Assembly (NCBI GenBank): GCA_963769025.1
Contig: CAVYKI010000012.1
Location: 320,001-384,000 of the forward strand
From: an uncultured Verrucomicrobiae bacterium
GTDB lineage: Bacteria > Verrucomicrobiota > Verrucomicrobiia > Chthoniobacterales > Chthoniobacteraceae
Length of the DNA: 64,000 nucleotides
Direction: 5' to 3'
Shown: positions 5,664 to 57,361 of the stretch, in pieces
Position numbering within the stretch: position 1 is the stretch's first letter
How the letters are laid out: each line of letters begins with the position of its first letter
The notes under the pieces: model-generated
Database searches by the model: none
Told to the model about the DNA's origin: nothing
Seen by the model: only the letters and a program-made list of their open reading frames with translations
Made by a program: the position numbers and the translations under genes

Positions 5664-7103
<1,440 letters not shown>

Positions 7104-38500: not shown

Positions 38501-41500
38501 AACGAGGAAACCTGAACAGTCCCCGCACCGTTCAACTGCACCTGCCCGGTAAAAGTGTTGGCTCCCGCCAGGATGACCGTGCCTCCCGCGGCGGAGTTGA
38601 AATCCATATTTTGGAGACTCGATGCGCCATTCGCGATGACCGCATTGATCGTCAGGATGGTGCCGTTGGACGCATTGTAGTCCGGTCCGTTGGCCGCGCC
38701 AGTCGTCGCGCCGAGGAAAATAGTGCCGTTGATCGTGCTCGTGCCCGTGGCGGCGACGTTGCCCAATCCCAGATTGGACAGGATAATCCCGCCTGGACCG
38801 GTATCCAGAATGCCGCCGCTGATCGTGATGTTCTGCGCGGTATTGGCACCGCTCAGGGTCACCGTGCCGGCGCCTGTCTTGTTAATCGTCAGCGGGGAAG
38901 CCCCGGTGCTGAAGTTTCCGGCGATCGCGCTGCTGACGACGATGTTGCCGGATCCGGTGAGCCCCAACGTCTTCGCGCCCGTGCCGGTGAAGGTGATGGG
39001 ATTGGTGATCGTGAGGGTTCCCGCGCCGGAATTGTCAATCGTGCCGCCGCCGGTGGTGCCAGCGAGATTGAAAACGCGGTCGGTGGTTTCGCCTGCGCCA
39101 GTGTAGGACAAGGTCCCGGTCGTGGCGCCAGATCCCAGTTGAATCGTCGCATTCGCGATCGTGGTGGGCGCACCCAAGGGACCACTGGCGGCTCCGACGT
39201 TGTTGATGGCGGCCACGCTCAGCGTGCCGTTCTGCACCCAGGTCGGGCCGGTGTACGTGTTCGCGGTACCGAGCATGAGCGTGTTCGTGCCGAGCTTCGT
39301 GAAGCCGGATGAGGTCGTGCCGCTGATATTCCCGATGACCGATGAGTAGGTGGCGTTGCCTCCGGTGGTATCGAGGGCCAGGGCCGTTCCGGTCGCGGCG
39401 AAGGAAAGATTGGTCGAGAATGTTCCCGCGAGGACGTTGGCGATATCGGCCGCCGTGAAAGCGCCTGCGCTCCCATAGGCGAGCCCGAGGGTGCCGCCGC
39501 TGGAGACGGCGATGACCGGGTTCCCGGATGGGTACCCGACCATGGAGGCGGCATTCTGGAAAGCAACGACGCCGGCGCTGATCGTGATGCTGCCCGTGTA
39601 GGCACTCGTGCCCGACAATACCAAATTCGATGTCGCGCTGTTCTGGGTGATGCTCGTGACATTCGCGCCGATGTTGGAACTGATGGTCGTGGTCCCCGCG
39701 CCCGTGCCCGAGTTGGTCAGCGACCCGGTGAAATTGAGGTTCGCGCCGGAAACGGTAATGCCTCCCGCGGCGTTGGCGTTGAATGTCAGTGGCTGTGTGC
39801 CGGTGAAGGTGCTCGCGTTCGAGAAAGTCCACAGCCCGCCACCGGTCGAGGTGAAGGTGTTCATGCTCGCGCTCAGGGGCACCACCGAGCTGACGGTGAA
39901 TGCGTTCCCACCCGCCTGCGAGATGGCGGTGATGCCGCCGCCGATGGCACCCGAAAGGGTCGCGACCGGGGCGCCGCTGGCGCCGATGTTCGTGATCGTG
40001 CCGGTCTGATTCTGGGGGCCGGAGAGATTGACCGTCGAACCGGCGGCGGTCCCGTTCAGCAGGATATTGCCAATGCCGGAGACCGCACCTGAGGCGTTGG
40101 TGATGAACGCGCTGCTGCTCGTATTTCTCAATTGCAACGTCGGGGTGCTCGCGCCAGCTGCGAAGGTAATCGTCCCCCCCGCGTTGACCGTGCCCGAGAC
40201 GGAGAGGACGGCCGTGCCTGCGGCGTTGGGGATCGTGACGTTGTTTGGAAGGGTAAAGGTCGCTCCCGCGTTGGTAAAAAACAGCGTGGCGCCAGGCGTG
40301 ATCGAGAGCGGCCCGGTTCCCAACGGATTCACGGTCGCGACGGCGGTGGTCGTGACGGTCAGCTGGCCGGCTTGAATGTTGATTGGCATCGCCCCTGAAA
40401 TGGCGGCGGTGCCGCCAAGGGTGCTCAAATTCAGGGTGCCCGCCCCGACCTTGGTGAGGACATTCGTGCCCGAAATGAGCGGGACGGTGGCCGTGGCACC
40501 GCCAAGGGTGATGTTGTTCGCGCCGCCAAACGTGAGCGGGCCGCCGGGCGCGATCGTGAGCGTTCCCGCCGTCAACACGCCTCCAGGGGTGATCGTCAGC
40601 GTCCCCGTGGTGGAGTCGATTCCGCCGCCGCCCGCATTGATCGTGAAGTTGCGGGAGAGCGTGGCCGCGCCACCGGTATAGACGAGCGTGCCCATGGTGC
40701 TGGCACCGCCGAGGATGATGTTACTCGTGGAATTTCCCAGGCCGCTGACGGTGGTCACCACCGGGGTGCCGGAGAAACTCAGCGTTCCCTGCGTGATGGT
40801 GGTCGTGCCGGTGTAGGCATTGCTCGCGCTGCTGAGGGTCAACTGCGAGGTCGCAGAGTTTTGCACGACATTCGTGACGCTCGAAGCAATGGCACCGGTG
40901 ATGGTCACGGTGCCGGGTCCCGCGCCGGAGTTGGTGAGAGTGCCGGTGCTGGCAATGCCCGCGGTGGACGTGATGCCGCCCGTGCTGTTGGCATTGAACA
41001 CAAGGCTGCCCGTGCCCGCTGCGACACCGCCGGTCAGCGTGAAAAGACCCGCGCCGCTGCTGGCGATGGTGAAGCCCAACTGGTTGACGGGGTACGCGGG
41101 CGTCAGGGTGAGCGGGCTCGTTCCGGTCTCGTTGATCGCCGTGATGTTCGGGCCGAGATTCCCGATCGTGGTCGTGCCGGAACCCGTGCCAGAGTTGGTG
41201 AGCGTGCCGGTGGTGGCGATGCTCCCGGTGACCGTGATGTTACCGGTGTTGTTGGCATTGAACGTGACAGGGAAGACTCCCGCGCTGATGCCGCCGGTGA
41301 GCGTCAACAGCCCGGTGCCCGTGTTGGTGAACGTGTTCATCGTCGCCGAGGGCGTGATCGCGTTCGTGATCGTGAGCGGGGAGACGCCAGCCTGGGTGAG
41401 GGTGGTGACATTGGTGCCCAGCGTCGTGATGGTGGTGAGGCTGGTCCCCGAGCCAGCGTTGATCACCGTCCCGGCGTTGTTGACGTTGGTGAACGTGAGG

Positions 41501-43425
41501 GCAGCCGCGGTCGGGCTGGAGATGACGAGGTTGTTCGTCCCCGTGATCGAACCATTGAGCGTGACTAGTGTGCCTGTATTCTGCGTGCCGATGGAAAGGG
41601 TTCCAGTGCCCCCGGCGGTCAGGACGATGGGATTGGCATAGGTGAGTTGCGAGCCGGCAATCTGCAACCGCGCGTCCGCACTGCCGGAGGAGTCGCCGAG
41701 ATTGATGGTATTGGCGGCGGCAAATTGCAGCACTGCCATAGTTCCTCCCATCACCAGCGTTCCCGCCTTGATGTTGATCGCGCCTGTGAGAGTGCCCCCC
41801 GTGGTGGCATTCAGGCTCACCGTGCCCGGGGTCGTCTTGTTCAGCCCATTGGATCCTGCCATCGGCGCGGACACCGTGCCCGATTGAAGATCGAAAGCCG
41901 CAGTGCTCGTGAGCACGCCGCTGCCGGTGATGGAACCGGACTTCAAGCTGACCGAGGCGACCGTGTCGGCATAGGTCGCCATGCCGAGCGTGCCGCCGTT
42001 GATGGTGACCGCCGTGGCGCTGTTCAGGGCGTTGGCGATGCCGAGGGCGAGCGTGCCGCTGTTGATCGTCGTCGGCCCGGTGTAGGTGGCGACTTTGCTA
42101 ATCGTCACCGTGGAAGCGCCGCCGCCGATGGTCAGCGCTCCGGCCCCCGCACCGTCCTTGATCGTCCCGGAGAAGGTGATCGCGGCACCGGGAACCACGA
42201 CGAGTTCATTATTCGCGCCGATCGTGATGTCGCCCGCGCCGATAATCCACGTGCCCGAAGGGCCGGCATTCATGAGGCCATTGACCGAAAAGAGCGTTGC
42301 GCCGGGAACCGTCGTAGACCCCGTATTGGCGTAACGAATCGTATTCCCCGAGAACGAGGCCGGTGCCGTCCCGTTCGCAGACGTCAATTCATAATTCACT
42401 GTTCCCGTCGTGTCCGTGAGGTTCGCGGGCGCGGCTGCCGTAGTACCGCCCGTGAATGCCACCACTTGGTTGCTGCCGTTCACGGTCGCGTAACGGAGCG
42501 TGGTCGTCGCCCCGACAGTCGCCCACGGGCCGAGGATGCCATTCACATTCGTATTCGATGTGGTGGCGATGACGCCGGTGGTCAGCGGAATCACGCTGAA
42601 ATTCAGCGTGCCCCCGGAAGTCTGCGCGATGGCACCGAGATTCAGCGTGAGCGAAGTCGCCCCGTTTTGCGTGAGCGTGACGACGCCCGATCCCGCGAGG
42701 GTGGTTCCGGCGAATGTCTGGGAGTTTGTGGCGCCGCCGGCACCCGTGAGCGTGAGCCGGCCGCCGTTCAGCACCAGCGTGGACGCGCTGTTGATCAGGT
42801 CGGTCGAGTTGGTCGCAAAGTTCAGATTGAGCGTCGCGCCGTTGCTGATGCTGGTGTCGCCGGTGTAGGCGTTCACCGCAGAGAGGTTCAGCGTGCCGCC
42901 GCCGTACACGCCGAGTCCGTCCGCGCCCGCGATGACGGAACCGATCGTCGTCGCGACCCCGGTGTTGACGAAGAGATTCGGTCCCGCCGAGCCGAGGGTG
43001 AGCTGCCCGCCGTTGAGCGTGTAACCGGTCGTGAAAAACTGCAGCGAACCCGTGTTCACTCCACCGCCGGCAAGCGTCACCGTCCCGGCCGTCCCGGTGA
43101 AGATGACCGTGTCGGTGGTGAGGTTTGGCCAGGCGGCGTCCGTGCCGGTCACCGTATTGAACCAGAGGAGCGAGGAGGTGTCCCACGCTCCGGTCCCGCC
43201 CAAATTGTTTCCGGTGTTGCCTGTCGAGTTGATCGACTGGCCCGCGTAGTTTCCAACCGTGCTTCCATCGGCGTCCCAGTAATACGTCGCAGCACCCACG
43301 TTCGTGGTCGGGATGAGCGCCGCGGCAAGGACGGCGACGGAGCCGGCGAGGATGCGCTTGCGGACTGCCCGACTGGCGGTGCGGGCAGGCTTGCGGCGGA
43401 AAAGGGTAAGGTGGTTCATCTTCAT
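29509..43425 (-). CDS. Giant surface protein C (4,638 aa): signal peptide, passenger-associated beta-helix repeats, PEP-CTERM; paralogue of B
   Basis: Single uninterrupted ORF. N-terminus MKMNHLTLFRRK...RILAGSVAVLAAALIPTTNVGA, many TKxGxGTxTLSGxNTYTGxTxI repeats, C-terminus YEIVPVPEPATTALIGVVALCALIGYRERRR. Confidence 0.93.
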   Translation of the reverse strand: MKMNHLTLFRRKPARTASRAVRKRILAGSVAVLAAALIPTTNVGAATYYWDADGSTVGNYAGQSINSTGNTGNNLGGTGAWDTSSLLWFNTVTGTDAAWPNLTTDTVIFTGTAGTVTLAGGGVNTGSLQFFTTGYTLNGGQLTLGSAGPNLFVNTGVATTIGSVIAGADGLGVYGGGTLNLSAVNAYTGDTSISNGATLNLNFATNSTDLINSASTLVLNGGRLTLTGAGGATNSQTFAGTTLAGSGVVTLTQNGATSLTLNLGAIAQTSGGTLNFSVIPLTTGVIATTSNTNVNGILGPWATVGATTTLRYATVNGSNQVVAFTGGTTAAAPANLTDTTGTVNYELTSANGTAPASFSGNTIRYANTGSTTVPGATLFSVNGLMNAGPSGTWIIGAGDITIGANNELVVVPGAAITFSGTIKDGAGAGALTIGGGASTVTISKVATYTGPTTINSGTLALGIANALNSATAVTINGGTLGMATYADTVASVSLKSGSITGSGVLTSTAAFDLQSGTVSAPMAGSNGLNKTTPGTVSLNATTGGTLTGAINIKAGTLVMGGTMAVLQFAAANTINLGDSSGSADARLQIAGSQLTYANPIVLTAGGTGTLSIGTQNTGTLVTLNGSITGTNNLVISSPTAAALTFTNVNNAGTVINAGSGTSLTTITTLGTNVTTLTQAGVSPLTITNAITPSATMNTFTNTGTGLLTLTGGISAGVFPVTFNANNTGNITVTGSIATTGTLTNSGTGSGTTTIGNLGPNITAINETGTSPLTLTPAYPVNQLGFTIASSGAGLFTLTGGVAAGTGSLVFNANSTGGITSTAGIASTGTLTNSGAGPGTVTITGAIASSVTNVVQNSATSQLTLSSASNAYTGTTTITQGTLSFSGTPVVTTVSGLGNSTSNIILGGASTMGTLVYTGGAATLSRNFTINAGGGGIDSTTGTLTITPGGVLTAGTLTIAPGGPLTFGGANNITLGGATATVPLISGTNVLTKVGAGTLNLSTLGGTAAISGAMPINIQAGQLTVTTTAVATVNPLGTGPLSITPGATLFFTNAGATFTLPNNVTIPNAAGTAVLSVSGTVNAGGTITFAAGASTPTLQLRNTSSSAFITNASGAVSGIGNILLNGTAAGSTVNLSGPQNQTGTITNIGASGAPVATLSGAIGGGITAISQAGGNAFTVSSVVPLSASMNTFTSTGGGLWTFSNASTFTGTQPLTFNANAAGGITVSGANLNFTGSLTNSGTGAGTTTISSNIGANVTSITQNSATSNLVLSGTSAYTGSITISAGVVAFQNAASMVGYPSGNPVIAVSSGGTLGLAYGSAGAFTAADIANVLAGTFSTNLSFAATGTALALDTTGGNATYSSVIGNISGTTSSGFTKLGTNTLMLGTANTYTGPTWVQNGTLSVAAINNVGAASGPLGAPTTIANATIQLGSGATTGTLSYTGAGETTDRVFNLAGTTGGGTIDNSGAGTLTITNPITFTGTGAKTLGLTGSGNIVVSSAIAGNFSTGASPLTINKTGAGTVTLSGANTAQNITISGGILDTGPGGIILSNLGLGNVAATGTSTINGTIFLGATTGAANGPDYNASNGTILTINAVIANGASSLQNMDFNSAAGGTVILAGANTFTGQVQLNGAGTVQVSSFNSVTGGTASSSLGAPVTAGNGTILLNSNGILKYVGPGETTDRIISLNGTTSGATIDQSGGGLLKFSSNFATPGAGAKTFILTGSTSGTGEIGGAITQNSTTNTTTLTKNGTGTWTLSGINTYTGATNVNAGNLILSQGAGSGVLGNTGIVINNGGTLSPLAGTSGYFAGNAGTAAAGARVTLNAGGTLNLADGSVNPFVLIQHTTFAGNAATFNGGSLTFDIGQTAADQIDVRLNNIPGSGQATSSGANAIAINPATGAGFLTPGNYTLINATAGLSTLNPAHFFLASPNLFVGGVLYNLSLSGTTGTEVLTVATGGAAAAPNTAYWTGALGTSWATGSAGGVPTNWASTAAGTADTFAVPASNTNVILTANNGMNLLTALNQAFTINSLTFSGAGTANSAGSTVASGAGTNALTINAAALNGNAAGNGIAVQAGSGADLISANVILGGNQAWTNNSTNALTISGVVSDGGSNFNLTIAGTGTTALTNGANTYGGITTINAGATLSVPTLTNGGAPGTLGQSSSAATNLVFSGNSTLSYTGAISTSNRAFTINTGVTATFDINAAGSLSLAGATGAATTGALIKVGPGALTLSGANTYTGNTTVVDGTLNLTGSLTGNGVTNAGSLLIVTNGANQTAVVNVGGDINTYYAYQGANNPGSVSVYNQTGGTVTTTTTQTANNTNFVAGNGGYGYFNITGGTFNNAVGRMTVATSGTTTNPGTVGVVYVGSGGTLISNAEYFLIAYNNLNNIGQVTVGPGGTFNRNGTANPLVMYWTTAGATGILNVTGGLLTTTAGRGIQFGNSGNSSGNVGIVNFAAGTYQTNTAFTVTSNTGTNGAFAYINAAGGTIMTTGAVTALLPGNATNTTTIAKIFGAINNAAATGDSSQNFTGGLKFDSNGFNSTITQPMNGVAGSGVYAANLTVTGGTGYVGAPAVTFTGGTLAAGGVPASGYALISGGAVTGIVITAPGEYTVAPTVNLSGGGGTGASVSVGSLVANTNTGGLTKLGAGNLTLSNANSSFGGPVIISGGVLVSSGLGSLANIGANSSIGTGDPTSNATNAASLVLDGGTYSVLNTSGAVTTDRLLTVTENGSTLSSDNTTAANVLTFANSAAIAYTGSGARTLAFAGARAGTNVLMDTFAPLIGDAAVGQVSVTKNGTAAWILANAGNSYTGPTTINGGILSVSAIGIAGAGGTPSRLGASSNAAANLVLSGGTLGYTGAGETTDRNFTFGNAATAAGGGIDTTGATGALIISGSMTGANAAASTQVLTLTALAASGANAINGSIVDSNTGIGALTGVTKAGIGAWTLGGANAYSGLTTISAGTLNITGTNTLASPITFTSGGNGIVNVNSSGTVNAGTLTWAGATGGVLNLLGGTLLANGNLTSTNSTVNALSFNGGTLRSAAPITISTLLNINVQAGGGTIDTAGGDITSSSAIGNTASPGTLNVIGGNTFQAAFNATFTGNANITGAGTRVRFITTAAAYGGLWTVGSGATLDINNVGNYSFGGLAGGGTILNTGASALRTVTITGAGGNAFSGSIQQPAPSTTLATGVTLNLASPTAVQTFSGNHTYGGPTTLTQGTLALTGGSLDNTAISIAANGTLAVLPGAGAYTAGNGATAGMGASLNVAANGTVNMVDGAIGTFNVVQNASFATAALTLATANFNFELSSAGVDQIIFSGGTVASVISGTNTITITALGTSLTPGTYSIITAPGIPAGNTLFKFGNGTDTRSITVGALSYPLTLTSVSGIEQIVVGTGVGFVTWTGQTNGTGAANSVWIATPAGHNNFATPAPAASDYSEGSAVIFQDTNTITSANVTNGTVIIDGAGVNPSAVTVNNSSAVPYTFQNASGTIGIAGATNLNKTGTGTLTLLGQNTYTGATVINGGIVNVGVAEGAGTGPLGNGGVLTFTGGTLQSSAANTNDYSARFSTAAGQDLWLDPNGQTVLLATPLISAGGTLTVGLVGGSTTGTLNITSAPGTNTYSGATVINAGTLRLSSTATASAFGALAGTPSITVNSGGTLLLQSSVNDLLGYTAGTAALIINGGTVTNDGSGSRVTLANPVTMTGGTLGGTSTGNNGGTYSLSNATPFTAVIATSDAAGNPAVINPAGGIAIQNATSQIFNVTIGVMAPVSDLNITTPINNYTGITGSITKSGTGIMTVSGANTYTGATIIGQGTLRFGADQTLSGGLTFGAAAASTITGTLDLGTTPSNATFGGTLLVQTSSATANTIIVGSGKALAVNGNVTVGFNPSSTATTKLTITGATPGVGAFNVSAAAGTLQIGGATGSVGNAATLDLTGLATTTISLGSGTLRVNNNDATNVTANVATFLLPIPTGVTATTPVTTITATNFNVGDSPGFSSGGTANTVQLGSGLTTLNVNTLNVASGTRDLGVMIFNPAATNGAITLRALNGTGAVGVNVGTGANTGTGTAGQHNLVDFTGRYADLLISTLTVGGGGRNFTINNDFKFDTGILVATGMVIGNASLGTTATVSPVTTSSVTIGGGSVTIGASGVSMGTVTDTSGGARTIIGNLNISGGTVNIGTTGVFSIRLGNLTAATGVVTTTDNLNITGGSTTLAGDIIRSTVTRTTANVTLDGATAALDMGGNKIGSTGTPINFNLRQGTLANLNEFNGGANLVKTTGGTLTLTGVNSYTGATNINAGTVNIDTVAAGATSQSLGMNTGANAVTLGVASTSSGTLNYTGGAGTLDKNITALGNGNDTVQNSGTGKLTLAGTLTKNGTVLTLAGGANGIAVTGAIVGSNPNSDLTISGGTTTVSNNNTYNGATVVTSTGTLELATGGSLSGTTGVSVNSGGTLVMNNNASNVVNTTATMNLAGGTLAVGSTVSNDTTKTQTFGALTLSGASTLDFGTGTVGNALVFAQNATFASGTLAIWNWTAGSYPVGSFANDTGSLGDGQDRFLFNGTGSGFNAGQLANITFFSDSGMTQIGFGAAEVSFGSQYEIVPVPEPATTALIGVVALCALIGYRERRRFTGTRARFARK

Positions 43426-43826: not shown

Positions 43827-44225
43827 ATGAAAATTAACCGTCGTTCGTTCATCGGACTAGGCTCGCTCGCGGCCTGTGGAACTGCGCTCAACGTCCCCTT
43901 GCCCGCCGCGGTCACGCCGCATCCATTCCCTGGCGCGGCCCCGCTTTGCGCGGGTGGCGAGGCAGTGCTCGCGTATGTGCGCAGCTACACCGCGAATTTC
44001 CGCATCGTCAATGCATCGCAACCCGGCACGGACGGAAGGCACAGACTGCATCTGGTGACGGAACTGGCGGACGTGGAACATTGGCCCGCAGCGATGGCGC
44101 AGGTACCGTTCGCGAAGGTCCGCGCGGGCGGCAACACACTGGCCTTTGCGATCGACGGACTGGACGTGACGATCGAAAACCTCCCGCCCGAGGCCTTCGC
44201 CCACCGGCTGACTCTCCCCGCTTAG
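43827..44225 (+). CDS. Hypothetical protein with a twin-arginine (Tat)-like signal
   Basis: 132 aa starting MKINRRSFIGLGSLAACG (NRRSFI matches the S/T-R-R-x-F-L motif). Divergent from gene C. Weak TTGACG-N17-AAAACT promoter-like sequence at 43772-43800. Confidence 0.6.
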   Translation: MKINRRSFIGLGSLAACGTALNVPLPAAVTPHPFPGAAPLCAGGEAVLAYVRSYTANFRIVNASQPGTDGRHRLHLVTELADVEHWPAAMAQVPFAKVRAGGNTLAFAIDGLDVTIENLPPEAFAHRLTLPA

Positions 44226-44449
44226 TCCTCGCAGGCTTCTCACTTTCGCGGTCAAAACGCCTCGTCCCGCGAAGAGCGCCCGCAACCGTCTCCTCCGCCG
44301 CAGCAGATTCCCGGGGCGACGCGTAGTGAAATCGAATGCAGGCACCCGAATGGAATCTGAGCGACGCCAGATAGCACACTAGCGACGGCGCCCGCCGGCT
44401 CGCGGCGATTTTCCGGGGATATTTGAGACAAGTAGTTTCATTTTTTTTG

Positions 44450-44479
44450 TTGCCTGCCTTTTCCCGCATAGCATAGGCT
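44450..44479 (+). promoter_or_regulatory. Putative sigma70-type promoter of the tail-collar operon
   Basis: TTGCCT-N18-TAGGCT preceded by a T-tract (UP-element-like), about 55 nt upstream of the ATG at 44533. Confidence 0.35.
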
Positions 44480-44532
44480 CCGGCGCGTCGGCAGTTTTTC
44501 GGCAGACTAGGTCAACTCAACCCATTCCCACC

Positions 44533-45045
44533 ATGGCAGAACCCTTCCTCGCAGAAATCCGCATCATGTCTTTCAATTTCGCCCCGAAAGGCTGGGCGAT
44601 GTGCAACGGGCAACTGCTGCCCATCAACCAAAACCAGGCGCTCTTCTCGCTGCTTGGCACCACCTTCGGCGGCGACGGGCGGGTCAACTTCGGCCTGCCT
44701 GACCTGCGCGGGCGCACGCCGATCCACGTCGGCAGCGGTCACACGCTCGGCGAGCGCGGCGGCGAGCAGGCGCACACGCTTTCCGTCGCGGAACTGCCGA
44801 ACCACACGCATGTAGCGCAGGCCAACAATTCGGCGGCTGGGACGGCCGATCCGACGAACGCGTTCTTGGCCCAACCGCCAGCGGCATTGGGATCGATCTA
44901 CACCACGACGTTGAATCCTTTGGTCGCGATGAATCCGGCAGCGGTGACGACCGTAGGTGGCAGCCAGGCACACCTCAACATGCAGCCGTTCCTGACGCTC
45001 ACCTTCTGCATCGCCCTGCAAGGCATCTTCCCATCACCCAACTGA
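44533..45045 (+). CDS. Phage tail-collar domain protein 1 ('microcystin-dependent protein' MdpB-like family)
   Basis: 170 aa. AEIRIMSFNFAPKGWAMCNGQLLPINQNQALFSLLGTTFGGDG...FGLPDLRGR, LPNHTH, HLNMQPFL...IALQGIFP. Confidence 0.9.
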   Translation: MAEPFLAEIRIMSFNFAPKGWAMCNGQLLPINQNQALFSLLGTTFGGDGRVNFGLPDLRGRTPIHVGSGHTLGERGGEQAHTLSVAELPNHTHVAQANNSAAGTADPTNAFLAQPPAALGSIYTTTLNPLVAMNPAAVTTVGGSQAHLNMQPFLTLTFCIALQGIFPSPN

Positions 45046-45054
45046 TTCACGCAT

Positions 45055-45555
45055 ATGGCACAACCTTACGTCGGCGAAATTCGGATGTTTGCGGGCAACT
45101 TCGCTCCCGCGGGCTGGATGTTCTGCGCAGGCCAGCTCCTGCCGATCTCGGAAAACGAGACGCTCTTCAACCTCATCGGCACGACCTACGGCGGCGACGG
45201 CCAATCGACCTTCGCTCTGCCCGACCTCCGTGGCCGACTGCCCATCCATCAAGGCGACGGGTTCATTCTCGCCGAAACCGGTGGAGCGGAAGAAATCACG
45301 CTGACGGTCAATCAGATTGCAGCGCACAGCCACGCGTTCCTTGCTTCGAGCGGCACGGCGGGCACGGGGAGTCCTCAAGGCGCGGTTTTGGCCCAGCCGA
45401 CGGCCAGCATCTACAACTCGGGGACGAATCCGGTGAACATGGCTGCGCAGGCAATCTCCCAGGTTGGCGGCAGCCAGCCGCACAGCAACTTCCAGCCTTA
45501 CCTCTGCGTGAATTTCATCATCTCGCTCTTCGGCATTTTCCCTTCGCCGACCTAG
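45055..45555 (+). CDS. Phage tail-collar domain protein 2
   Basis: 166 aa. GEIRMFAGNFAPAGWMFCAGQLLPISENETLFNLIGTTYGGDG...FALPDLRGR, IAAHSH, HSNFQPYL...ISLFGIFP. Confidence 0.9.
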   Translation: MAQPYVGEIRMFAGNFAPAGWMFCAGQLLPISENETLFNLIGTTYGGDGQSTFALPDLRGRLPIHQGDGFILAETGGAEEITLTVNQIAAHSHAFLASSGTAGTGSPQGAVLAQPTASIYNSGTNPVNMAAQAISQVGGSQPHSNFQPYLCVNFIISLFGIFPSPT

Positions 45556-45606
45556 CCTCGGGCTTGCCGCAACCTCTTCACTGTCACCTTCCACTCTTAA
45601 CTTCCC

Positions 45607-46134
45607 ATGGCCGATCCATTCGTCGCAGAAATCCGCATCTTCCCGTTCAACTTTGCGCCCAAGGGCTGGGCGTGGTGCGACGGGCAGCTCCTGCCGCTCT
45701 CGCAAAACACCGCACTCTTCTCCCTGCTCGGCACCACTTACGGAGGCAATGGCAAATCGAACTTCGCACTGCCCAATCTGCAAGGCCGCGCGCCGATGCA
45801 TCCGGGACAAGGGCCGGGCCTTTCGCTGCACGACCTCGGTGAGACCGGCGGGTCGGAAATTGTGACTCTCCTGGAATCGGCAATCCCGTTGCACACGCAT
45901 GCGATGCGGGCTTCCAGCGATGTAGCGGATAACAACGTGACAGCCGGCAAAATGCCGGCAAAGCCGCTTGGGCGCGGCAACACCTTGTTCGTCACCACGG
46001 CCTCGCCGCTGGTCTCGATGGCGGACGTGGCGTTGGCGCCCGCGGGCGGCAATCAACCGCACAACAACCTGCAGCCATTCCTCACGTTCTACTTCTGCAT
46101 CGCGCTGCAAGGAGTCTTCCCGCCCCGGAGCTAA
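45607..46134 (+). CDS. Phage tail-collar domain protein 3
   Basis: 175 aa. AEIRIFPFNFAPKGWAWCDGQLLPLSQNTALFSLLGTTYGGNG...FALPNLQGR, IPLHTH, HNNLQPFL...IALQGVFP. Confidence 0.9.
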   Translation: MADPFVAEIRIFPFNFAPKGWAWCDGQLLPLSQNTALFSLLGTTYGGNGKSNFALPNLQGRAPMHPGQGPGLSLHDLGETGGSEIVTLLESAIPLHTHAMRASSDVADNNVTAGKMPAKPLGRGNTLFVTTASPLVSMADVALAPAGGNQPHNNLQPFLTFYFCIALQGVFPPRS

Positions 46135-46140
46135 AGGTTC

Positions 46141-46743
46141 GTGCAGGCAGTTGCCGGATATTTTCGCTCCGAAGTGCCGGCAGGCAGGTCGGGCGCGTGG
46201 GCGATCGAGAAGGTCGTCATCCCTGAACGTGATTACGATCCCGCGGCCGATCCGCGGCCCGAGTGCTTCAAGTTTCGGCCTGGACCTTACACGTGCCTCA
46301 GCCGCGGCTCGACGCAGTTCATGACGGACCTCTACGACGAGTGGTGGACGCAGCGCAGTGCGATCGCGGAGGCGGAAGCGCGCGGTGGTGAGATTTTGAT
46401 CACCGGGCTCGGCCTCGGTCTCGTTGCCGAAGCCATGCTGCATTCGACCCGGAGCAGGATCACCCGGATCACCATCGTTGAATTCTCCAGCGACGTAATC
46501 CGGTTGGTGGCGCCGTTCCTTGCCTCGCGCTATTCGGACAAGATCGAGATCATCCACGCTGACGCCTTCGACTGGAGACCGCCCGCCGGACAGCGTTTCA
46601 CCGTGGGCTGGCATGACATCTGGCCAGATCCTAATGCGCCGGAAAATGCAGAAGAAATGGAAAAACTCGGGGCACACCATCGTTCCTGGTGCGATTGGCA
46701 AGGCTATTGGCCGAAGGAATACCTCGAAGCACTAGCCGGCTAA
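46141..46743 (+). CDS. SAM-dependent methyltransferase / spermidine-synthase-like fold protein
   Basis: 200 aa, GTG start 6 nt after the previous stop. GEILITGLGLG (motif I), ITIVEFSSDVI, IIHADAFDW, WHDIW. Confidence 0.7.
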   Translation: MQAVAGYFRSEVPAGRSGAWAIEKVVIPERDYDPAADPRPECFKFRPGPYTCLSRGSTQFMTDLYDEWWTQRSAIAEAEARGGEILITGLGLGLVAEAMLHSTRSRITRITIVEFSSDVIRLVAPFLASRYSDKIEIIHADAFDWRPPAGQRFTVGWHDIWPDPNAPENAEEMEKLGAHHRSWCDWQGYWPKEYLEALAG

Positions 46744-46867
46744 TCCCCATGCGAACTGGGATGCTTCCGTGATTCCGAAGACTCACTGCGATCTGACGGT
46801 ACGCATGCCATCACCGGCAGGGTTGCGCCGGCCCGCCGTTGCATGACGGCGTGCGCGAACCCGGGAA

Positions 46868-47359
46868 ATGATCACCTTCCGCCCATCCAGCGATGCAGAC
46901 CGCGAATTTCTCCAAGCGGTATATGCAGGCACGCGCGCGGAGGAGCTGGCGGTCACGCGCTGGAGCGAGCACGAGAAGGCGCGGTTTTGCCAGCAGCAGT
47001 TCGCTGCGCAGGACGCGCACTACCGCCAGCATTATCCCGCCGCGACGTTTTCAGTGATCGAGCGGGATGGGTGGCCGATAGGGCGGCTGTACGTGGATCG
47101 TTCGGAGCAGGAGATCCGCATCATGGATATCGCGCTTCTGCCCGAGCACCGCGGCGCCGGGATCGGGACCAAGCTGCTGCGCGAATTGCAGGAGGAAGCC
47201 CGGAGCGCGCGCAAGGCCCTGAGCATCCATGTGGAGAAATTCAACCCGGCGCTTCGTCTCTACGAGCGGCTGGGCTTTTGCACGAGGGAGGACAAGGGCG
47301 TCTATCTCCTGATGGAGTGGCGCGGAAATGCGGACTGCGGAGCGCGGAATGCGGAATGA
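46868..47359 (+). CDS. GNAT family N-acetyltransferase
   Basis: 163 aa. IMDIALLPEHRGAGIGTKLL (acetyl-CoA motif A), LSIHVEKFNPALRLYERLGF. QQFAAQDAHY is typical of the GNATs found next to tail-collar genes. Confidence 0.88.
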   Translation: MITFRPSSDADREFLQAVYAGTRAEELAVTRWSEHEKARFCQQQFAAQDAHYRQHYPAATFSVIERDGWPIGRLYVDRSEQEIRIMDIALLPEHRGAGIGTKLLRELQEEARSARKALSIHVEKFNPALRLYERLGFCTREDKGVYLLMEWRGNADCGARNAE

Positions 47360-47405
47360 ATTCGCGGCTGCGCCTTTGCCCCTCCGCACGCCAGACTCCG
47401 CATTT
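47322..47405. repeat. Heptamer (GCGGAAT-like) tandem plus inverted-tandem element at the 3' end of the GNAT gene
   Basis: GCGGAAAT GCGGACT GCGGAGC GCGGAAT GCGGAAT, followed by the complementary arm CTCCGCAC...CTCCGCATTT. Confidence 0.6.
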
Positions 47406-47410
47406 GCCGT

Positions 47411-47710
47411 TCAGTTGAAGATGGCCTCGAAGTGCGAGGCGGTGGCGTCGGCTGCGACTTGGACGAGGAAGATTTCCATGGCCCCGAGTGCGGCATTTTC
47501 GAGGCGATAGATCCCTTGCGGGAGCCGGAGCGCCGGGGCGCCGTGGAAGGTCAGTGCGAAGGGGGCACGGGGCGCGCCGGGATAGGCGGCGCCGAGCGGA
47601 CGGACTTCCGCGAGCGTGAGGGCGATGGGGCCTGCGGCGGAGGGCAGTTCAAACGTCTGGCCCACGCAGGGCGCGAACTGGGCATGGGCGGCGATGGCGA
47701 GATCGAGCAT
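47411..47710 (-). CDS. Small DUF6916-like hypothetical protein
   Basis: 99 aa. F..CVGQTF, LTLAEV, PFALTF.G, LPQGIYRL, EIFLV and C-terminal FEAIFN, the pattern of the small protein that usually accompanies tail-collar/GNAT clusters (recognised by eye). Confidence 0.7.
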   Translation of the reverse strand: MLDLAIAAHAQFAPCVGQTFELPSAAGPIALTLAEVRPLGAAYPGAPRAPFALTFHGAPALRLPQGIYRLENAALGAMEIFLVQVAADATASHFEAIFN

Positions 47711-48207
47711 CGCGAAAATGTCGGGAGACGGCGGACAAATGTCGAATCCCGAATCTCATCCGGGACGTGCCCGCGGCAGGACGGGGGATGCCAGGCTCGC
47801 GCGGACCGATCCATCACGCGCCGGGGCCGTGCGACGAAGTTCCCCTTCCCGCGTTCCGGCAGCGGCGCGACTCGGTCGGCATCCGGTCCCGGCGCCCGAT
47901 CCCCGATAGCCCGACCGGATAGCAGCCATTGAGCGACGCGATGGTTTTCGGGCGGTTTTCACCTTGCCTCCGGCGACCAAAAAGCAATGCTCCCGCGCAT
48001 GGAAATGCGGACCTTCAGATCGCGCGCGCTGATGCCTCGGAACCGCGTGGGCGGCTTCTCCGGAGAATGCGCTTTGCGTCCCGTCCGGGACCTGCTGCGG
48101 GTCCGCATCGCGCGCGGGCCGGAACCCCTTTGAGCCGCCGCAATCCCGTGCCTTTCAGTCTTTCCTGCCTATCAAATCCCATCACCGTCAACACCCGTTC
48201 ACCGCTC

Positions 48208-51200
48208 ATGAAACGCCTGCGCCTCATCTCACTTCGCGTCCAACTCTCGTGGTTGCTCCTCCCGGTCCTCCTGCTTGCCACCGCGGGCCGGAGCGCAGCC
48301 GCGCCGACTGTCACCGCGACTAAGGACGACGGCGTCACGTCCGCGAGAAAGGCGGGCGACGTGGTCACCTACACGAACACGATTTCGAACACGGCGGCCC
48401 CGGCTGGGGGAGGCGTCAACGATGCGACGGGCGTGCAGTTTGCCGATCCGGACGTGGCGCACATGCCCTACGTCGTGAATTCGCTCAAGGCGACGCCGGT
48501 GGCCATCGACGACACGTATCCCGCCACGGTCCTCGCCAACACGGGCATCAACACCGCGACGAGCACGGGCTTCAGCGTGGTGACGAATGATTTCAAGGGT
48601 TACCTGGCCGGCGCGGCGGTCGCAGTGGGGGATGTCGCCCTCACGGTTTCAGCATTCGATGCCCTGACGACGGGAGGCGGCACCGTGGTCATGACCACCA
48701 GCGGCGCGAACGTCGGGAAGTTCACCTACACGCCCGCACCGGGTTTCACCGGGACGGACACGTTCACCTACACCATCGACAACACCGCGGGCGGAACTTT
48801 GGTCAGCCGGACGGCGACCGTGAGCATTCCGGTCGGCGGGCCCGTGATTTGGTATGTCAACAACACGGCTGGGCCCGGCAACGGGACGCTCGGATCGCCC
48901 TTCAATACCCTCGCGGCGTTCCAGGCGCTCAACAACGGCATGGGCAACAATCCCGCCGCAGGCCACTTTGTGTTCCTCTATGAAAGCGCGGTGGCCTACG
49001 TGGGCCCCGTCACCCTGCTCAGCAACCAAAAGATCCTCGGGCAGGACGCCACGGCGAGTTTGACTGCCATCACAGGAGCCATGCCTCCGGGGGATATCAC
49101 TACCGCGCTTCCCGCCATGAACAGCGGCAACGCCACGATCACGAAAATCACCAGCGCCGGCAACGCGATCAATTTGAACGGTGCCGGAACCACGAATCTC
49201 GTCCGCGGCCTCACGGTTGGGAACACGACGGGGATTGGCATTTCGGGCACGGGCTTCGGCACTTTGACGGTTGCGGACACGAGCCTCGCGGACACCGGCA
49301 CACGCACGGGGCAGGCATTGAATCTAATCACGGGCACCGTGAGCGGAACCATCGACAACCTCGTGTCGAGCAGCGCCGCCAATGGGGTGTTCCTGACCAG
49401 CATCGGCGGATCACTGACCATCACTGCCGGGTCGCTGAGCGCTCTCACTGGCGACGACTTCACCATCAACGGCGGCACCGGGAGCATCAGCTACGGCGGC
49501 ACGATTACAAACAGCACCCTACGCTCCGTCCTCGTCCTCAACAAGACCGCCGGCACCATCACTTTCGGCGGCCTGATCACCGACACCGCCGGCAGCACGG
49601 GCATCGGCCTCGACACGAACACCGGCGCGACCATCAACTTCACCGGCGGCATGAGCCTCACCACCGGCGCGAACGTGGCATTCACTGCGACCAACGGCGG
49701 CACGGTGACGGCCACGCAGAACAACACGACCATCGTCAACACGATCACGACCACTACGGCCGCGGCGCTCAATGTGACGAACACAACCATCGGCGCGGGC
49801 GGGCTCACCTTCCGCAGCATCAACAAGAACGGAGGGACCAATCTCGCGGTCAGCCTCGCGAATACGGGCGCGGGCTTCTTTACGGTCACCGGCACGGGCA
49901 CGACGGCGGGCACGGGTGGCACGATCGAGAACATCAGCGGGATCGACGCCATCCGCCTCGATAACACTGACGGGCTGGTGACGCTCCAAAACATGATCAT
50001 CGAGGACATCACGCACCCGAACGACGCGGCGACCGCCAGCGACAGCCGCAGCGGCGTGGACGCGATCCACGGCCAGCAGGTGGATGGCGGCCTCACCTTG
50101 AACAACGTCACGATCCGCCGCATCAGCGACAGCGGCATCAATGGAACGCTGTTCGCGACCGGCTTGGCGACCGTCTTCAACGGGCTGACCATCATCAATT
50201 CCACCTTCGAGGACACGAACCGCTTCAGCGTGGTGAACCGGGCGGATGCCACCGATGAGGGCGCCGTCCACATCCTGGGGCTCCGGGGGACCGTGTCCAT
50301 CACCGGCAGCCTCTTCCAGCGCGTCGGCCATGGGCTCAACATCCAGACCGACACGAGCGGCACGCTCGACATGACGGTGCAGGGCAGCAGCTTCCTCGAG
50401 GTCAACAAGGAGATGCCGAGCGAGGCGTTGAAGCGCGTCGGCCTCTTCGGCATCGACATCCTGCAGGTCGGCTCGCTCTCCTCCGCCATCCGCATCGGCG
50501 ATCCCGCCGAAGCCAGTGGGGCGCTCGGCAATATCTTCACGAACAACGCCCTCGCCTCGATCCGCGTCATCGCCGAGAACACTTCGACGGGCAATCTCAA
50601 CACGGTCATCTCGCGCAACACGTTCACCGTCACCGACCACTCCTCGCCGGGGACCTTGCCGGGGAGCATGGTCTTCGACTTCCCGCAGGGCGGCGTGCTG
50701 TTGCGGGCGCGCGGCACGGGCAATTTTGAGTCCATCTTCTCGCGCAACACACTAACCGAGGTGATGCACGCCGACGGCGGTCTCGGCCAGCTTACCATCC
50801 TGGCCGAACGGGGGACTTCTGAATACATCGTCCGCAACAACACCTTCTCGCTGGCGTGGGATGCGCCCGTCGAAATCAGGGCCGATGGCAATGCGGCACC
50901 GGGTGCGGTGACCGCGCTGGTGCAGTTCACGGGCAACACCTACATCGATGGTCCTGTGGGTGGCCCGACCGACGACCTCGGGGCGGCGTTCCAATCGCCG
51001 TATGTCCCGCTTTACATCCAGGCACGAAATGGCGGCCGGCTCGACCTCACGATGCAGAATGAGGCCACGCCACTGCCGCTCAATGACCCCGCTTCCGGCT
51101 TCCCGGAATCCTTCTACGCTCAAACGACCGCCAACCCGAGCGACATCATCAACTTGTTCCTCCAGAATATCCAGTCGCCCCGTGGTTTCCGACTGAACAA

Positions 51201-54200
51201 CAATGCCGGCTCCACGTTCAACCTGTTCCGCAACGGCTCGGCGGGCGCGACGCCGCAATTGGTCCTCCAGGACAACGGCAACCGTGGTGGCGCCGGGGTC
51301 GATACGACCAACCCGCCCGCCGTCGTGACGAGTGGCACCATCACGCTCTCAAACACCACACCCACGCTGCCGGTCGTCGCGGCGCCGCTCCTTTTTGCGC
51401 CGGGCGGCATCGAGAAGGCCCACGGCACCGCGCTTTCGATTGCGGCCGCAGACATTTCGGGGCCGCTTGCGAAGTTGGGCGGGCAGACCACAAACGGCGT
51501 TGCGGGCGATACGCTGACGCAGGCCCCCGCCGCTCCCGCCGTGCTCACGCAGGCGCAGCTCGATGGCGTCGTGTCCGCGGCGATGGCGCGCTGGGAGGCG
51601 ACGGGATTGACGAAGGAGCAGGCCGCGCTGCTGCGCGAAGTCACCTTTGAAGTCGCCGATCTGCCGGGCTGGTATCTCGGCGAGGCGGCGGGCCACCGCA
51701 TCCGCGTGGACAACAACGCCGGCGGCCACGGCTGGCACATGGACGCCAGCCCGGAGAGCGACGCGCTCTTCGGCACGATCGTCTCCCCGACGCGCCGCTA
51801 CACCGATCCCGCGAGCGCACCCGCCGGGCGCATTGATTTGCTCACCACGATCCTCCACGAGTTCGGCCACGCGCTGGGCCTCGAGGATTCCTACCTCGCG
51901 CAGGACCGCGAGAGCATCATGTTTGGCCAGCTCACCAAGGGCGAACGCCGCCTCCCTGCCACCGGCCAGGCCGTCGGCGCGCACCCGCATGACCATGGCG
52001 TCTCGCACTTCCTCGTCGCCCCGCTGAACCCGATCACCGTCGGCACGCTGCCTCCGGGGAAGAGCGTGATCATCACCTACAACGTGCAGGTGGAAACGCC
52101 GATCACCCCGGATACGACCATGCAGACGAGCAGCCAGGGCACGGTGAGCGGCACCAATTTCGCCAATGTGCTCACGGATGATACCACCTTGCCCGGCGGC
52201 GCGGCGGACCCGACGGTGACGCTCCTCGCCCCGCCGCCGAAGGTGACCAACGTCACTTCCACGGCCGCTAATGGCAGCTACACGGTCGCGGCCATCATCC
52301 CGGTGACAGTGACCTTCACAAGTGCGGTGACCGTGACCGGCACCCCGCAGCTCACGCTGGAAACCGGGGCGACCGACCGCGTCGTGAACTACTCCAGCGG
52401 CAGCGGGTCCAACACGCTGACCTTCAGCTACACCGTGCAGGCCGGAGACACCTCCGCCGATCTGGATTATACCGGCACCGGCGCGCTCGCGTTCAATGGC
52501 GGCACCATCATGGATGCCCCGGGCAACGACGCGATCCTCACCCTTCCCGCCCCGGCGGCGGCCGGCTCGCTCGGCGCCAACAAGGCCATCGTGATCGACA
52601 CGACCGCGCCGACGGTGACGAACGTCACTTCGACCAGTGCGGATGGCACCTATGTTCGTCGGCAATGTCATCCCCGTCACGGTGACGTTTAGCGAAGCCG
52701 TAACCGTGACCGGCACCCCGCAGCTCACGCTGGAAACGGGCGCCACCGACCAGGTCGTGAACTACGCCAGCGGCAGCGGCACCACCACGCTGACCTTCAA
52801 CTACACCGTCCAGTCCGGCGATGTCTCCGCCGATCTCGACTACATCAGCACCACCGCGCTCGCGCTCAATGGCGGCACCATCCGGGACGCGGCGCTCAAT
52901 GACGCCACCCTCACCCTCGCGGCGCCGGGTGCCGCGGGCTCCCTCGGGGCCAACAAGGCCATCGTCATCGACGGCGTGGCTCCGACGGTGACTAACGTCA
53001 CGTCCACGAACGCCAACGGCACCTACACCCTCGGCGCCCTCATCCCGATCACGGTGACCTTCTCCGAAGCGGTCATCGTGGACACGGCAGGCGGCACCCC
53101 GCAGATCACGCTCGAGACCGGGGCCACCGACCGCACCGTGGGCTACGCCAGCGGAAGCGGCACCACCACGCTGACGTTCAACTACACCGTCCAGACGGGC
53201 GATCTCTCCGCTGATCTCGACTACATCAGCACCACCGCCCTCGCGCTCAACGGCGGGAGCATCAAGGACGCCGCGGGCAACAACGCCACGCTCACCTTGG
53301 CTTCTCCGGGAGCGGCCGGATCCCTTGGGTTCAACAAGAACCTGGTGGTGGACGGCACAGCCCCCACAGTGACCGCCGTCTCCTCCACGAGCGCCAACGG
53401 CAGCTACCCCGCGGGCACTCTCATCCCCGTCACCGTGACGTTCTCGAGTCCCGTGAATGTGACCGGCACGCCGCAGCTCACGCTGGAAACCGGCGTCACC
53501 GACCGCGTGCTCAACTACGCCAGCGGCACCGGCACCGCGACGCTCACGTTCAACTACACGGTCCAGGCGGGCGACACCTCCGCCGATCTCGATTACGTGG
53601 GCACCACGGCGCTCGCGCTCAATGGGGGGACGATCAAGAACGGCACTGGCACGGACGCGGTCCTCACGCTGCCCGCTCCGGGAGCGGCCGGCTCGCTCGG
53701 GGCCAACAAGGACATCGTGATCGATACCACCGCGCCGACGGTGAGCGGCGTCTCTTCCACGAGCGCCAACGGTGCTTACGCCGTCGGTGCTCTCATCCCG
53801 GTGACCGTGACCTTCTCCGAGGCCGTGACCGTGACCGGCACCCCGCAGCTCACGCTCGAAACGGGCGCCGTGGACCGCGTCATCAACTACGCCAGCGGCA
53901 GCGGCAGCGCCACGCTGACCTTCAACTACACCGTCCAGGCGGGCGATGCCTCCGCGGATCTCGACTATCAGAGCACGACTGCGCTCGCGCTCAATGGCGG
54001 CACCATCAAGGACGCCGCAACCAACGACGCAACCCTCACCCTTGCCGCTCCCGGCGCCGCGACTTCGCTCGGCGCGAACAAGGACATCGTGATCGACGGC
54101 GTCGCGCCCACGGTGACCAACGTCACCTCCACCAGCGCCAACGGCAGCTACGCCATCGGCGCGATCATCCCGGTCACCGTGACCCTCTCCGAGGCCGTGA

Positions 54201-57200: not shown

Positions 57201-57307
57201 GCCCCGTCACCGTGGACCAATACGGCGCCGGCCACTACGTGGACGGCCCCCCGCCCCACGCCTCCGCCAGCGGCTTCTATAGGCTCGTCTATCCTTACGT
57301 GCCGTAA
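48208..57307 (+). CDS. Giant secreted protein D (~3,030 aa): DUF11/Ig/cadherin-like domains, beta-helix, metzincin-like HExxH domain, 7 tandem Ig-like repeats, C-terminal FYRL domain; one +1 frameshift at ~52655
   Basis: Signal peptide [32 protein letters not shown] at ATG 48208. PVAIDDTY...[19 protein letters not shown] is cadherin/Big-like. [11 protein letters not shown] at 51856-51888. ORFs 47929-52692 and 52637-57307 join inside repeat unit 2, which is 373 bp instead of 372. Confidence 0.85.
52237..54850 (+). repeat. Seven tandem ~124-127-aa Ig-like repeats in protein D
   Basis: Units start at about 52237, 52609, 52982, 53363, 53735, 54107 and 54479. Consensus [83 protein letters not shown]...[23 protein letters not shown]. 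Confidence 0.9.
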
Positions 57308-57361
57308 AGAACATCACCACCAATCACCGCCGAGAAAGAGCCTGTCACCCAACCCATCGCT

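Follow-up and report, generated by a model that had tools for sequence, protein, structure and literature searches.

We describe a complete copy of a conserved bacterial gene module, independent of phages and apparently undescribed, in the genome of an uncultured Verrucomicrobiae bacterium. It lies within positions 43827 to 47710 of a 64,000-nucleotide stretch of contig CAVYKI010000012.1 (this whole stretch is called the window below; its G+C content is about 65%). The module is built around a triad of adjacent genes, colA, colB and colC, whose small products carry the collar domain of phage tail fibres. The triad is accompanied by a gene for a GNAT N-acyltransferase, by a gene on the opposite strand for a DUF6916 protein and by a gene for a giant protein alongside. 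We think it probable that this is a domesticated fibre-tip module, in which the three collar paralogues make one knob and the GNAT, DUF6916 and the giant partner take the parts that are proposed for them below.

A triad of collar genes with a GNAT and a DUF6916 gene

The three collar genes are read in the same direction, on the forward strand. The product of colA (44533-45045; 170 residues) matches the Pfam family Collar (PF07484) with an E-value of 3e-28 and 98 bits, that of colB (45055-45555; 166 residues) with 2.4e-29 and 101.5 bits, and that of colC (45607-46134; 175 residues) with 9.5e-27 and 93.2 bits; the Pfam gathering score for this family is 24 bits. Only 9 nucleotides separate colA from colB, and 51 separate colB from colC. 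The GNAT gene (46868-47359, forward strand; 163 residues; PF00583, E-value 4.8e-15, 56.3 bits with a cut-off of 20.7) converges on the DUF6916 gene (47411-47710, reverse strand; 99 residues; PF21880, E-value 7.7e-28, 96.9 bits with a gathering score of 27). A first-pass annotation, made from the sequence alone, had reported three adjacent collar genes, each with one HxH motif and none with a signal peptide, followed by a methyltransferase-like gene, a GNAT gene and a convergent DUF6916 gene. The open reading frames (ORFs) and the PF07484 matches confirm this description of the triad, the ORFs of the other three genes exist at the places given, and the profile comparison that the annotation had recommended puts the Collar, DUF6916 and GNAT families all above their Pfam cut-offs.

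To locate further copies, the search was anchored on DUF6916, the rarest part of the module. A scan of one genome per species, with a 7-sequence alignment that biased the outcome towards Verrucomicrobiota, yielded 28 loci, of which 27 belong to Verrucomicrobiota and the remaining one to Sphingomonas. The gene content around each was determined by homology-guided gene calling and by tblastn with the proteins of the window. In 25 of the 28 genome loci, tblastn places colA, colB, colC and the GNAT gene in this order and convergent on DUF6916, so that a GNAT homologue stands between colC and DUF6916 in 25/28. DUF6916 was also found by tblastn in 24 plasmid records, and all 24 have collar genes within about 5 kb (for 22 records this was established by coordinate comparison and for 2 by tblastn on the fetched loci). 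The GNAT and DUF6916 are thus both core members of the module.

One of the plasmid copies bears on how the cassette moves. In plasmid pSR1 of Aminobacter sp. SR38 (L001, 8470-12393) the triad is 68-75% identical to that of the window and is nested in Verrucomicrobial clades, which points to a recent transfer of the cassette between phyla.

In open-access papers and bioRxiv, the literature covered (subscription journals lay outside its scope), we found no description of the bacterial triad module and no mention of DUF6916. The first-pass annotation had called it established that clusters of collar triads with GNAT genes recur in bacteria; this is true of the loci collected here, but the statement could not be traced to any paper.

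The module is independent of phages

The surroundings of the triad were examined for other phage genes. None of the 30 ORFs of the window that were scanned matches a PHROG family for head, packaging, connector, sheath, tube, baseplate, lysis or integration functions, and no capsid-like PHROG or Pfam match was found in the window. Likewise, none of 84 non-redundant neighbour proteins from the 28 related loci matches a structural, lysis or integration PHROG. The earlier view that the cassette is not phage-borne therefore holds, and the comparison that had been proposed with it, a search for homologous cassettes in prophage, tailocin or extracellular contractile injection system (eCIS) loci, found none among the 28. 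As to defence systems, 7 of the 8 proteins scanned with PADLOC have no match, and the methyltransferase-like protein weakly matches mad2 (E-value 3.9e-4).

It might be argued that a prophage, tailocin or eCIS has decayed here and left the fibre genes of the cassette as its sole survivors. The collar proteins do match PHROG tail families, and the methyltransferase-like gene beside them is of a phage type. This reading is already contradicted, however, and we give it almost no credence. Apart from the missing structural, lysis and integration families, the phage relatives of colB, which occur at 493 places in 451 records, are all less than 40% identical to it and mostly single-copy, whereas bacterial triads are up to 75% identical and nearly all close relatives come in threes. 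The order of the module is conserved across phyla. Finally, one weak plasmid match proved to be a true phage fibre of 343 residues amid tail-assembly, tail and lysis genes, and this real phage context looks different from that of the triad.

Evidence for a single knob made of three different chains

A first line of evidence is a tree of 75 collars from 25 loci, in which the proteins group by gene position and not by organism. The position label needs 6 changes on this tree, compared with a mean of 36.2 when labels are shuffled, and 0 of 200 shuffles gave a value as low. Only loci with three clean genes entered the tree; 8 loci with split or mis-called collars were left out. The colA, colB and colC proteins of the window fall in the position-1, position-2 and position-3 orthogroups, respectively, and the triad of Paenibacillus has the order B-A-C. 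Because the collars group by gene position, the triplication predates the spread of the module over Verrucomicrobiota, Alpha- and Betaproteobacteria and Deinococcota, and all three paralogues were kept in every lineage.

A second line of evidence comes from longer relatives of colB, of which there are 1308 at an E-value of 1e-10 or below. The best 120 of these 1308 are tandem fusions with 2, 3 or 6 collar units, and each unit was assigned to a type by hidden Markov models (HMMs) made from the alignments of A, B and C orthologues. Among the three-unit fusions in this set, 27/33 consist of one A, one B and one C unit, in the order B-A-C in 23 and A-B-C in 4. P0270, for example, has three complete units joined by short Gly/Ser/Pro linkers. 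The three-unit single-chain proteins (P0270, P0293, P0348 and P0355, all uncharacterised database entries) belong to the same subfamily as the triad, with 41-65% identity to colB. They differ from the products of the window in that their units are covalently joined, whereas the window's chains are separate, and in that some have signal peptides, PEP-CTERM anchors or Ig-like domains, which the window's chains do not.

The third line is an experimental precedent. According to the available part of a 2025 study of the virophage DSLV2 (PMC12724248), three consecutive PF07484 proteins co-purify via one tag as a 1:1:1 heterotrimer, which runs at about 55 kDa on native polyacrylamide gel electrophoresis and forms 16-nm fibres; tripartite tail proteins are also noted there in 44 related virophages. 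The same part of that paper is silent on bacterial triads, acetyltransferases and prophages. In common with the virophage tails, the triad consists of three consecutive, co-directional, small PF07484 genes with a build like the gp37 tip. The two also differ: the virophage proteins have 196-247 residues and are encoded beside capsid genes, whereas the set described here is bacterial, chromosomal or plasmid-borne, lacks virion genes and is partnered by a GNAT, DUF6916 and a giant surface protein.

On the strength of the position orthogroups, the A+B+C fusions and the virophage heterotrimer, the best reading at present is a 1:1:1 knob of A, B and C with an HxH clamp. This heterotrimeric, HxH-clamped tip had been put forward in the first-pass annotation, and the comparative evidence now backs it. 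The main alternative is that the three proteins form three separate homotrimers, which serve as alternative tips with different specificities. Phage fibres that carry the collar domain, such as T4 gp12 and gp37, are homotrimers; single-copy relatives exist on plasmids of Aliiroseovarius, Hymenobacter and Burkholderia, and each paralogue keeps an HxH motif of its own. Against this, a fixed A-B-C set is retained across phyla, 27 of the 33 three-unit fusions have exactly one unit of each type, and the virophage triad is heterotrimeric by co-purification (PMC12724248, available part). We consider separate homotrimers unlikely, though they are the alternative that we take most seriously.

The anatomy of the collar proteins is consistent with an assignment of the 1:1:1 knob to the tip of a fibre. 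The collar domain begins at residue 6-8 in colA, colB and colC, and by inspection none of the three has a visible signal peptide. Each has one HxH motif (NHTH in colA, AHSH in colB and LHTH in colC), and exactly one was present in every collar inspected, which were the window's three, those of the plasmid loci and the L031 set. Both histidines are invariant in colA (H91 and H93) and in colC (H96 and H98), in 17 orthologues each, and nearly so in colB. Conservation along the chain was measured as the fraction of sequences that have the commonest residue. It is 0.81-0.87 over residues 1-95, drops to 0.41-0.43 over the 35-45 residues after the HxH and returns to 0.81 over the last 36 residues (for colA the successive values are 0.81, 0.42 and 0.81). 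In colA, the Collar domain and the HxH are followed by a middle part that varies and by a C-terminal strand segment that is conserved. This pattern is that of a conserved scaffold which would carry variable binding loops.

When a profile was made from colB orthologues, it matched the T4 gp12 collar (E-value 1e-4) and the phage long tail fibre 8kec (E-value 1.6e-9). The gp12 motif SYHKH contains His445 and His447 in chain numbering, which are its zinc ligands, and the window's ...QIAAHSHA looks alike by eye. The likeness to the T4 gp12 and gp37 tips consists of a homologous collar, an HxH at a similar distance, as a putative metal site, and a C-terminal segment that is expected to return to the collar. 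Unlike gp12 and gp37, the window's proteins start at the collar, with no N-terminal shaft or baseplate-binding part; they are encoded by three distinct paralogues, whereas the phage has one gene that forms a homotrimer; and there is no phage context, with no tail, head or lysis genes around them.

Exported relatives and giant neighbours

Several relatives of the triad are equipped for export or anchoring. In a plasmid of Tateyamaria omphalii (L038, 6588-12619) all three collars have signal peptides of the Sec type, and the collar domain starts shortly after each of them. This triad has no GNAT; its locus also contains a convergent hypothetical gene for 108 residues, a carbamoyltransferase, a sulfotransferase and a 405-residue protein named 'tail fiber domain-containing protein'. 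Among the best 120 fusions, 9 have a PEP-CTERM motif, and the two of these that were inspected, P0293 and P0348, have signal peptides as well. The PEP-CTERM three-unit proteins P0293, P0348 and P0372 are circularly permuted: the segment found at the C-terminus of the separate chains (GGxQPHxNxQP...FPSR) comes first in them. P0355, with 1538 residues, has a signal peptide and joins six collar units, in two sets of three, to Ig-like and cadherin domains. Because its relatives carry signal peptides, PEP-CTERM anchors or Ig-like domains, these data argue for a role of the triad outside the cytoplasm, and the version without signal peptides would by extension be located at the surface.

Outside Verrucomicrobiota, an ORF of at least 899 residues is directly adjacent to the cassette in 14/15 loci, and these 14 span five phyla or classes. 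For 12 of them the adjacent product can be given as follows: Aminobacter, the product of a 12.5-kb gene; Rhizobium bangladeshense, a He_PIG/Big_9 protein of 1051 residues; Rhizobium sp. 11515TR, an ORF of 1880; Deinococcus sp. KNUC1210, a protein of 914 named 'VcbS'; Deinococcus ficus, 899; Pontibrevibacter, at least 2489; Ruegeria sp. TM1040, a choice-of-anchor D protein of 1895; Paenibacillus, an Ig-like protein of 1592; Comamonas, a YDG-domain protein of 3937; Spirosoma, 1487; Tateyamaria, an FG-GAP protein of 1002; and Tistrella, an ORF of 1872. In Azospirillum the nearest protein of such a size is 5 kb off. Only a few percent of bacterial genes encode about 900 residues or more.

Within Verrucomicrobiota a giant of the type found in the window, protein D (47929-61475, forward strand), stands beside DUF6916 in 20 loci (cluster 3). 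D has Big_9 and PATR matches and an Autotransporter domain (PF03797, E-value 1.4e-63). Residues ~120-600 and ~1100-1450 of its first ORF are common to giants of 17-18 other loci, some of which have DUF11 repeats as their remaining sequence. The second of these shared regions (about 300 residues; window positions 51300-52300) holds an 11-residue metzincin-like motif, and the L007 homologue gives a weak Peptidase_M10 match, which suggests that a protease domain is embedded in D-type adhesins. In Verrucomicrobiota, then, the giant protein conserved with the module is D. The giants as a whole are of unrelated families and lie upstream of the cassette, divergent from it or convergent with it, so that the recurring feature is 'a giant surface protein' and not one particular gene. 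With the 14/15 loci outside Verrucomicrobiota and the 20 Verrucomicrobial ones, the earlier remark that triads recur beside large surface proteins is borne out, and the link of the module to giant proteins is real.

A different interpretation of the same neighbourhoods is that the triad, the GNAT and DUF6916 are self-contained and unrelated to the giants, the product being a cytoplasmic or released lectin factor like RhiB or MrpB, and that adjacency reflects islands of surface and accessory genes. Homologues are named 'microcystin-dependent protein' by the sources; COG4675 is the COG of RhiB (PMC6969944, available part), and MrpB of Microcystis is described as similar to RhiB (PMC3328848, available part). 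The variety of the giant families and of their orientations, the 5 kb that separate the Azospirillum cassette from the nearest giant, and the lack of signal peptides in the window's proteins would all fit such a system. On the other side, a protein of at least 899 residues adjoins 14 of the 15 non-Verrucomicrobial loci, well above the few percent expected from the size distribution of bacterial genes, and one relative, P0355, fuses collar units directly to Ig-like and cadherin domains. We regard a self-contained system as improbable. What links colB homologues to RhiB (of the rhiABC operon of Rhizobium leguminosarum) and MrpB here is the shared COG name ('microcystin-dependent protein'), and, as far as the available part of PMC3328848 goes, rhiB and mrpB are single genes with rhiA/mrpA-type partners, whereas the window has a triad with a GNAT and DUF6916.

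The knob could also be a released antagonistic or protective factor, bacteriocin-like or blocking phage adsorption, for which the GNAT and DUF6916 would provide self-protection. The variability of the distal region is like that of receptor-binding proteins on which diversifying pressure acts, the cassette has crossed phyla (the Aminobacter plasmid triad is 75% identical to the window's and nested among Verrucomicrobial ones), and most carrier plasmids are large accessory replicons. There is, however, no toxin domain, no lysis or release gene and no PADLOC match, and the arrangement of DUF6916 and the GNAT is not that of a toxin and its immunity gene. We hold this possibility to be remote, more so than a self-contained lectin system.

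The GNAT and DUF6916 proteins

The GNAT has an acetyl-CoA motif, RGAGIG, by inspection. Its best NCBIfam match is RimI, at 41.9 bits compared with an equivalog cut-off of 86.4, and its best PDB match is an entry named 'N-terminal acetyltransferase, GNAT family' (E-value 1.1e-5); no close characterised relative was found in NCBIfam or the PDB. In a plasmid of Spirosoma oryzicola (L035, 8436-15699) a gene of the formyltransferase family follows the triad in the place of the GNAT gene, and because of this replacement the common chemistry may be N-acylation of an amine. The collar N-termini themselves are the favoured target. The second residue is A, S, G or T in 70/76 collars whose start could be placed, and the Tateyamaria triad, which bears signal peptides, has no GNAT; these few and related cases would be explained if the acyl group went to a free collar N-terminus. 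The three collars of the Spirosoma plasmid begin MD, ME and MD, with no small second residue.

DUF6916 is a large family, with 7262 cluster representatives at an E-value of 0.001 or below; the sources label homologues Chthoniobacter or Chthoniobacterales. The match of the window's protein covers 89 of the 91 profile positions, and its AlphaFold2 (AF2) model is a small stand-alone beta-barrel with one helix, at a mean predicted local distance difference test (pLDDT) score of 95.3. In most of the best 150 of the 7262 the matched stretch reaches the last residues, and the final Asn is nearly invariant in a 17-sequence alignment. A likeness to the barrels of phage Mu gp44 and VgrG was considered; these are weak matches, and we do not take them as evidence. 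A toxin-antitoxin reading of the GNAT and DUF6916 was rejected, since the two genes are convergent and not in one operon.

A model for the module and the points against it

The mechanism that we propose for this fibre-tip module runs as follows. One A, one B and one C chain would wind around each other to give one knob of about 55 kDa, with the conserved collar held on the axis by metal at the three HxH pairs. The poorly conserved distal loops would be the ligand-binding part, the ligand being probably a glycan or some other structure of a surface, and the knob would act outside the cytoplasm together with the giant adhesin. A heterotrimer lacks three-fold symmetry and may therefore offer one unique face to a monomeric partner, for which DUF6916 and a domain of the giant protein are candidates. 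The GNAT would acylate an amine needed for assembly or docking; our preferred candidate is the N-terminal Ala, Ser or Gly that would be exposed at the collar base after removal of the initiator methionine. Within this scheme the comparative evidence gives good support to the predicted heterotrimer assembly and surface role.

A number of observations weigh against this scheme, or at least against parts of it. With regard to the module as a unit, DUF6916 occurs without collars at 3 of the 28 genome loci (L015, L017 and L031). At two of these, L015 and L017, it stands alone; at the third, in Sphingomonas sp. AOB5 (L031, 5398-7872), DUF6916 and a GNAT adjoin a 572-residue ABC exporter with no collar gene, and because L031 has both without collars, the DUF6916-GNAT pair can exist on its own. 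Conversely, triads without DUF6916 or a GNAT are present at L033-L035, L037, L038 and L041. The 27 Verrucomicrobial loci are mutually related and do not amount to 27 independent observations, and giant proteins are common in Verrucomicrobial genomes. With regard to assembly, 6 of the 33 three-unit fusions are not A+B+C by HMM assignment, and some two-unit 'fusions', such as P0277, look like frameshift artefacts. With regard to export, the collars, the GNAT and DUF6916 of the window have no signal peptide, and no export route for them was identified.

Other points concern the small partners. A small second residue, as in the 70/76 collars, is common in proteins generally. The fold of DUF6916 has no significant relative in the PDB (best E-value 0.14) or in BFVD (best E-value 0.034). 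Nor does the family provide an informative fusion partner: the best 150 of 7262 are almost all 79-158 residues long, with one tandem duplicate of 237, and a search for longer members gave only proteins of 177 and 200 residues. The role of DUF6916 as adaptor or assembly factor is thus a guess. Finally, the window's own copy may be decaying, as its giant gene D is fragmented and a companion gene is truncated (see below).

One may go further and imagine a widespread plug-in tip: a metal-clamped A:B:C knob of phage fibre-tip origin that is made in the cytoplasm, N-acylated by its own GNAT and handed over by DUF6916, that leaves the cell without a signal peptide and that docks on giant adhesins of many unrelated families as their ligand-binding end. 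Bacteria of at least five phyla would then equip different giants with a specificity module that can be exchanged and horizontally transferred. We give this extended version only a slim chance.

Accessory genes and the layout of the locus

Immediately after colC, with an interval of 6 nucleotides, comes the methyltransferase-like gene (46141-46743, forward strand; 200 residues; GTG start), which the first-pass annotation had counted as a partner in the cassette. This part of the annotation did not stand. Because L010 alone among the 28 related genome loci has the gene, and other loci have different small inserts, it is a phage-type accessory insert and not a core member. Its product matches phrog_15480, 'methyltransferase' (E-value 5e-24), as well as phage genes with a methyltransferase annotation (best 3e-15), and most of the ESM Atlas clusters nearest to it are of viral origin. 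It has a GLGLG motif by inspection and no Pfam match, and scores 17 bits with the NCBIfam polyamine aminopropyltransferase model (cut-off 472).

Other loci have different genes in similar places. At some, a gene lies between colC and the GNAT gene, for a 494-residue protein with a weak, sub-threshold FG-GAP_3 match or for a protein like periplasmic binding proteins. Small GIY-YIG and PD-(D/E)XK nuclease genes stand between DUF6916 and the GNAT gene or beside the triad (cluster 12 in L006, L010, L012, L016, L023 and L029; cluster 16 in L010, L022 and L027). This part of the cassette is apparently a hotspot where small mobile genes insert, the methyltransferase-like gene of the window included. 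A more elaborate setting is seen in plasmid p1 of Azospirillum sp. TSH100 (L039, 3196-16309), where the cassette lies inside an apparent lasso-peptide gene cluster with a B2 protein directly upstream of DUF6916, a gene related to asparagine synthase, an ABC transporter, a 2OG-Fe(II) oxygenase, an FkbM methyltransferase and an Asp/Asn beta-hydroxylase.

The first-pass annotation began the region at 43827. This is the start of an ORF of 132 residues (43827-44225, forward strand) that it left undescribed; the ORFs that it did describe all exist. The ORF has an RRSFIG N-terminus and no Pfam, NCBIfam or PADLOC match. In tblastn with 15 full-length relatives it aligns only to residues 1 to ~130 of a family of about 335 residues, the rest of which has no other match in the window. 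This family is present in 20 Verrucomicrobial loci, at some of them upstream of colA and at others in the interval from DUF6916 to the giant gene; the 17 full-length copies that were aligned have 332-352 residues. Its members have a twin-arginine-like N-terminus (RRSFL), as at L021:12355-13353, and no usable ESM Atlas match was found. The predicted fold of a full-length member (mean pLDDT 85) resembles class II CCA-adding enzymes (Foldseek best E-value 6.7e-7; 53 matches at 0.001 or below), but inspection by eye shows no conservation of the usual catalytic aspartates. It is odd to find a nucleotidyltransferase-like fold behind an export-type N-terminus. By these alignments, the 132-residue ORF is a truncated N-terminal remnant of a Verrucomicrobiota-specific companion family and not part of the core.

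The cassette is flanked by giant proteins on both sides, as had been annotated; however, D, which had been presented as one protein, is actually split. It is read as at least four consecutive ORFs (47929-52692, 52637-57307, 57777-58937 and 59073-61475), of which the first two overlap at 52637-52692 and the last contains the autotransporter beta-domain. The probable start is at 48208 and is followed by a signal peptide. Protein C on the other side (29509-43425, reverse strand; 4638 residues) is transcribed divergently from the cassette. It matches the Pfam family PATR (PF12951) in 9 stretches (E-value 2.8e-45) and is a repeat protein of the autotransporter-passenger type; except for a short match to L011, it has no homologue beside the cassette in other loci. 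A reverse-strand run of PATR-repeat ORFs at 15060-28537 resembles one or two fragmented giant genes, and a Lyase_1 gene is broken into two ORFs (5699-7608). The breaks in D, in the PATR genes and in the Lyase_1 gene could be indel errors of the assembly or real pseudogenes. Between positions 43000 and 48500, Rfam gave no matches, no promoter-like sites were found and there is one terminator-like site, compared with 4.6 expected.

Significance

Proteins called 'microcystin-dependent' have been detected in soil metaproteomes (PMC5579227, available part). If our reading is correct, bacteria have made a permanent component of their surface out of a piece of phage machinery, in which three obligate paralogues are kept together with an acyltransferase of their own and a dedicated small partner, and are coupled to the largest proteins of the cell. 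This would be the first functional context for DUF6916, and it would supply one for the large and unexplained 'microcystin-dependent protein' COG. The question is open to direct experiment, thanks to the natural A+B+C fusions and to the cultured carriers, which are Chthoniobacter flavus Ellin428, Ruegeria sp. TM1040, Aminobacter and Ensifer. The module would then also give a handle on the ligands of giant adhesins in soil and marine bacteria.

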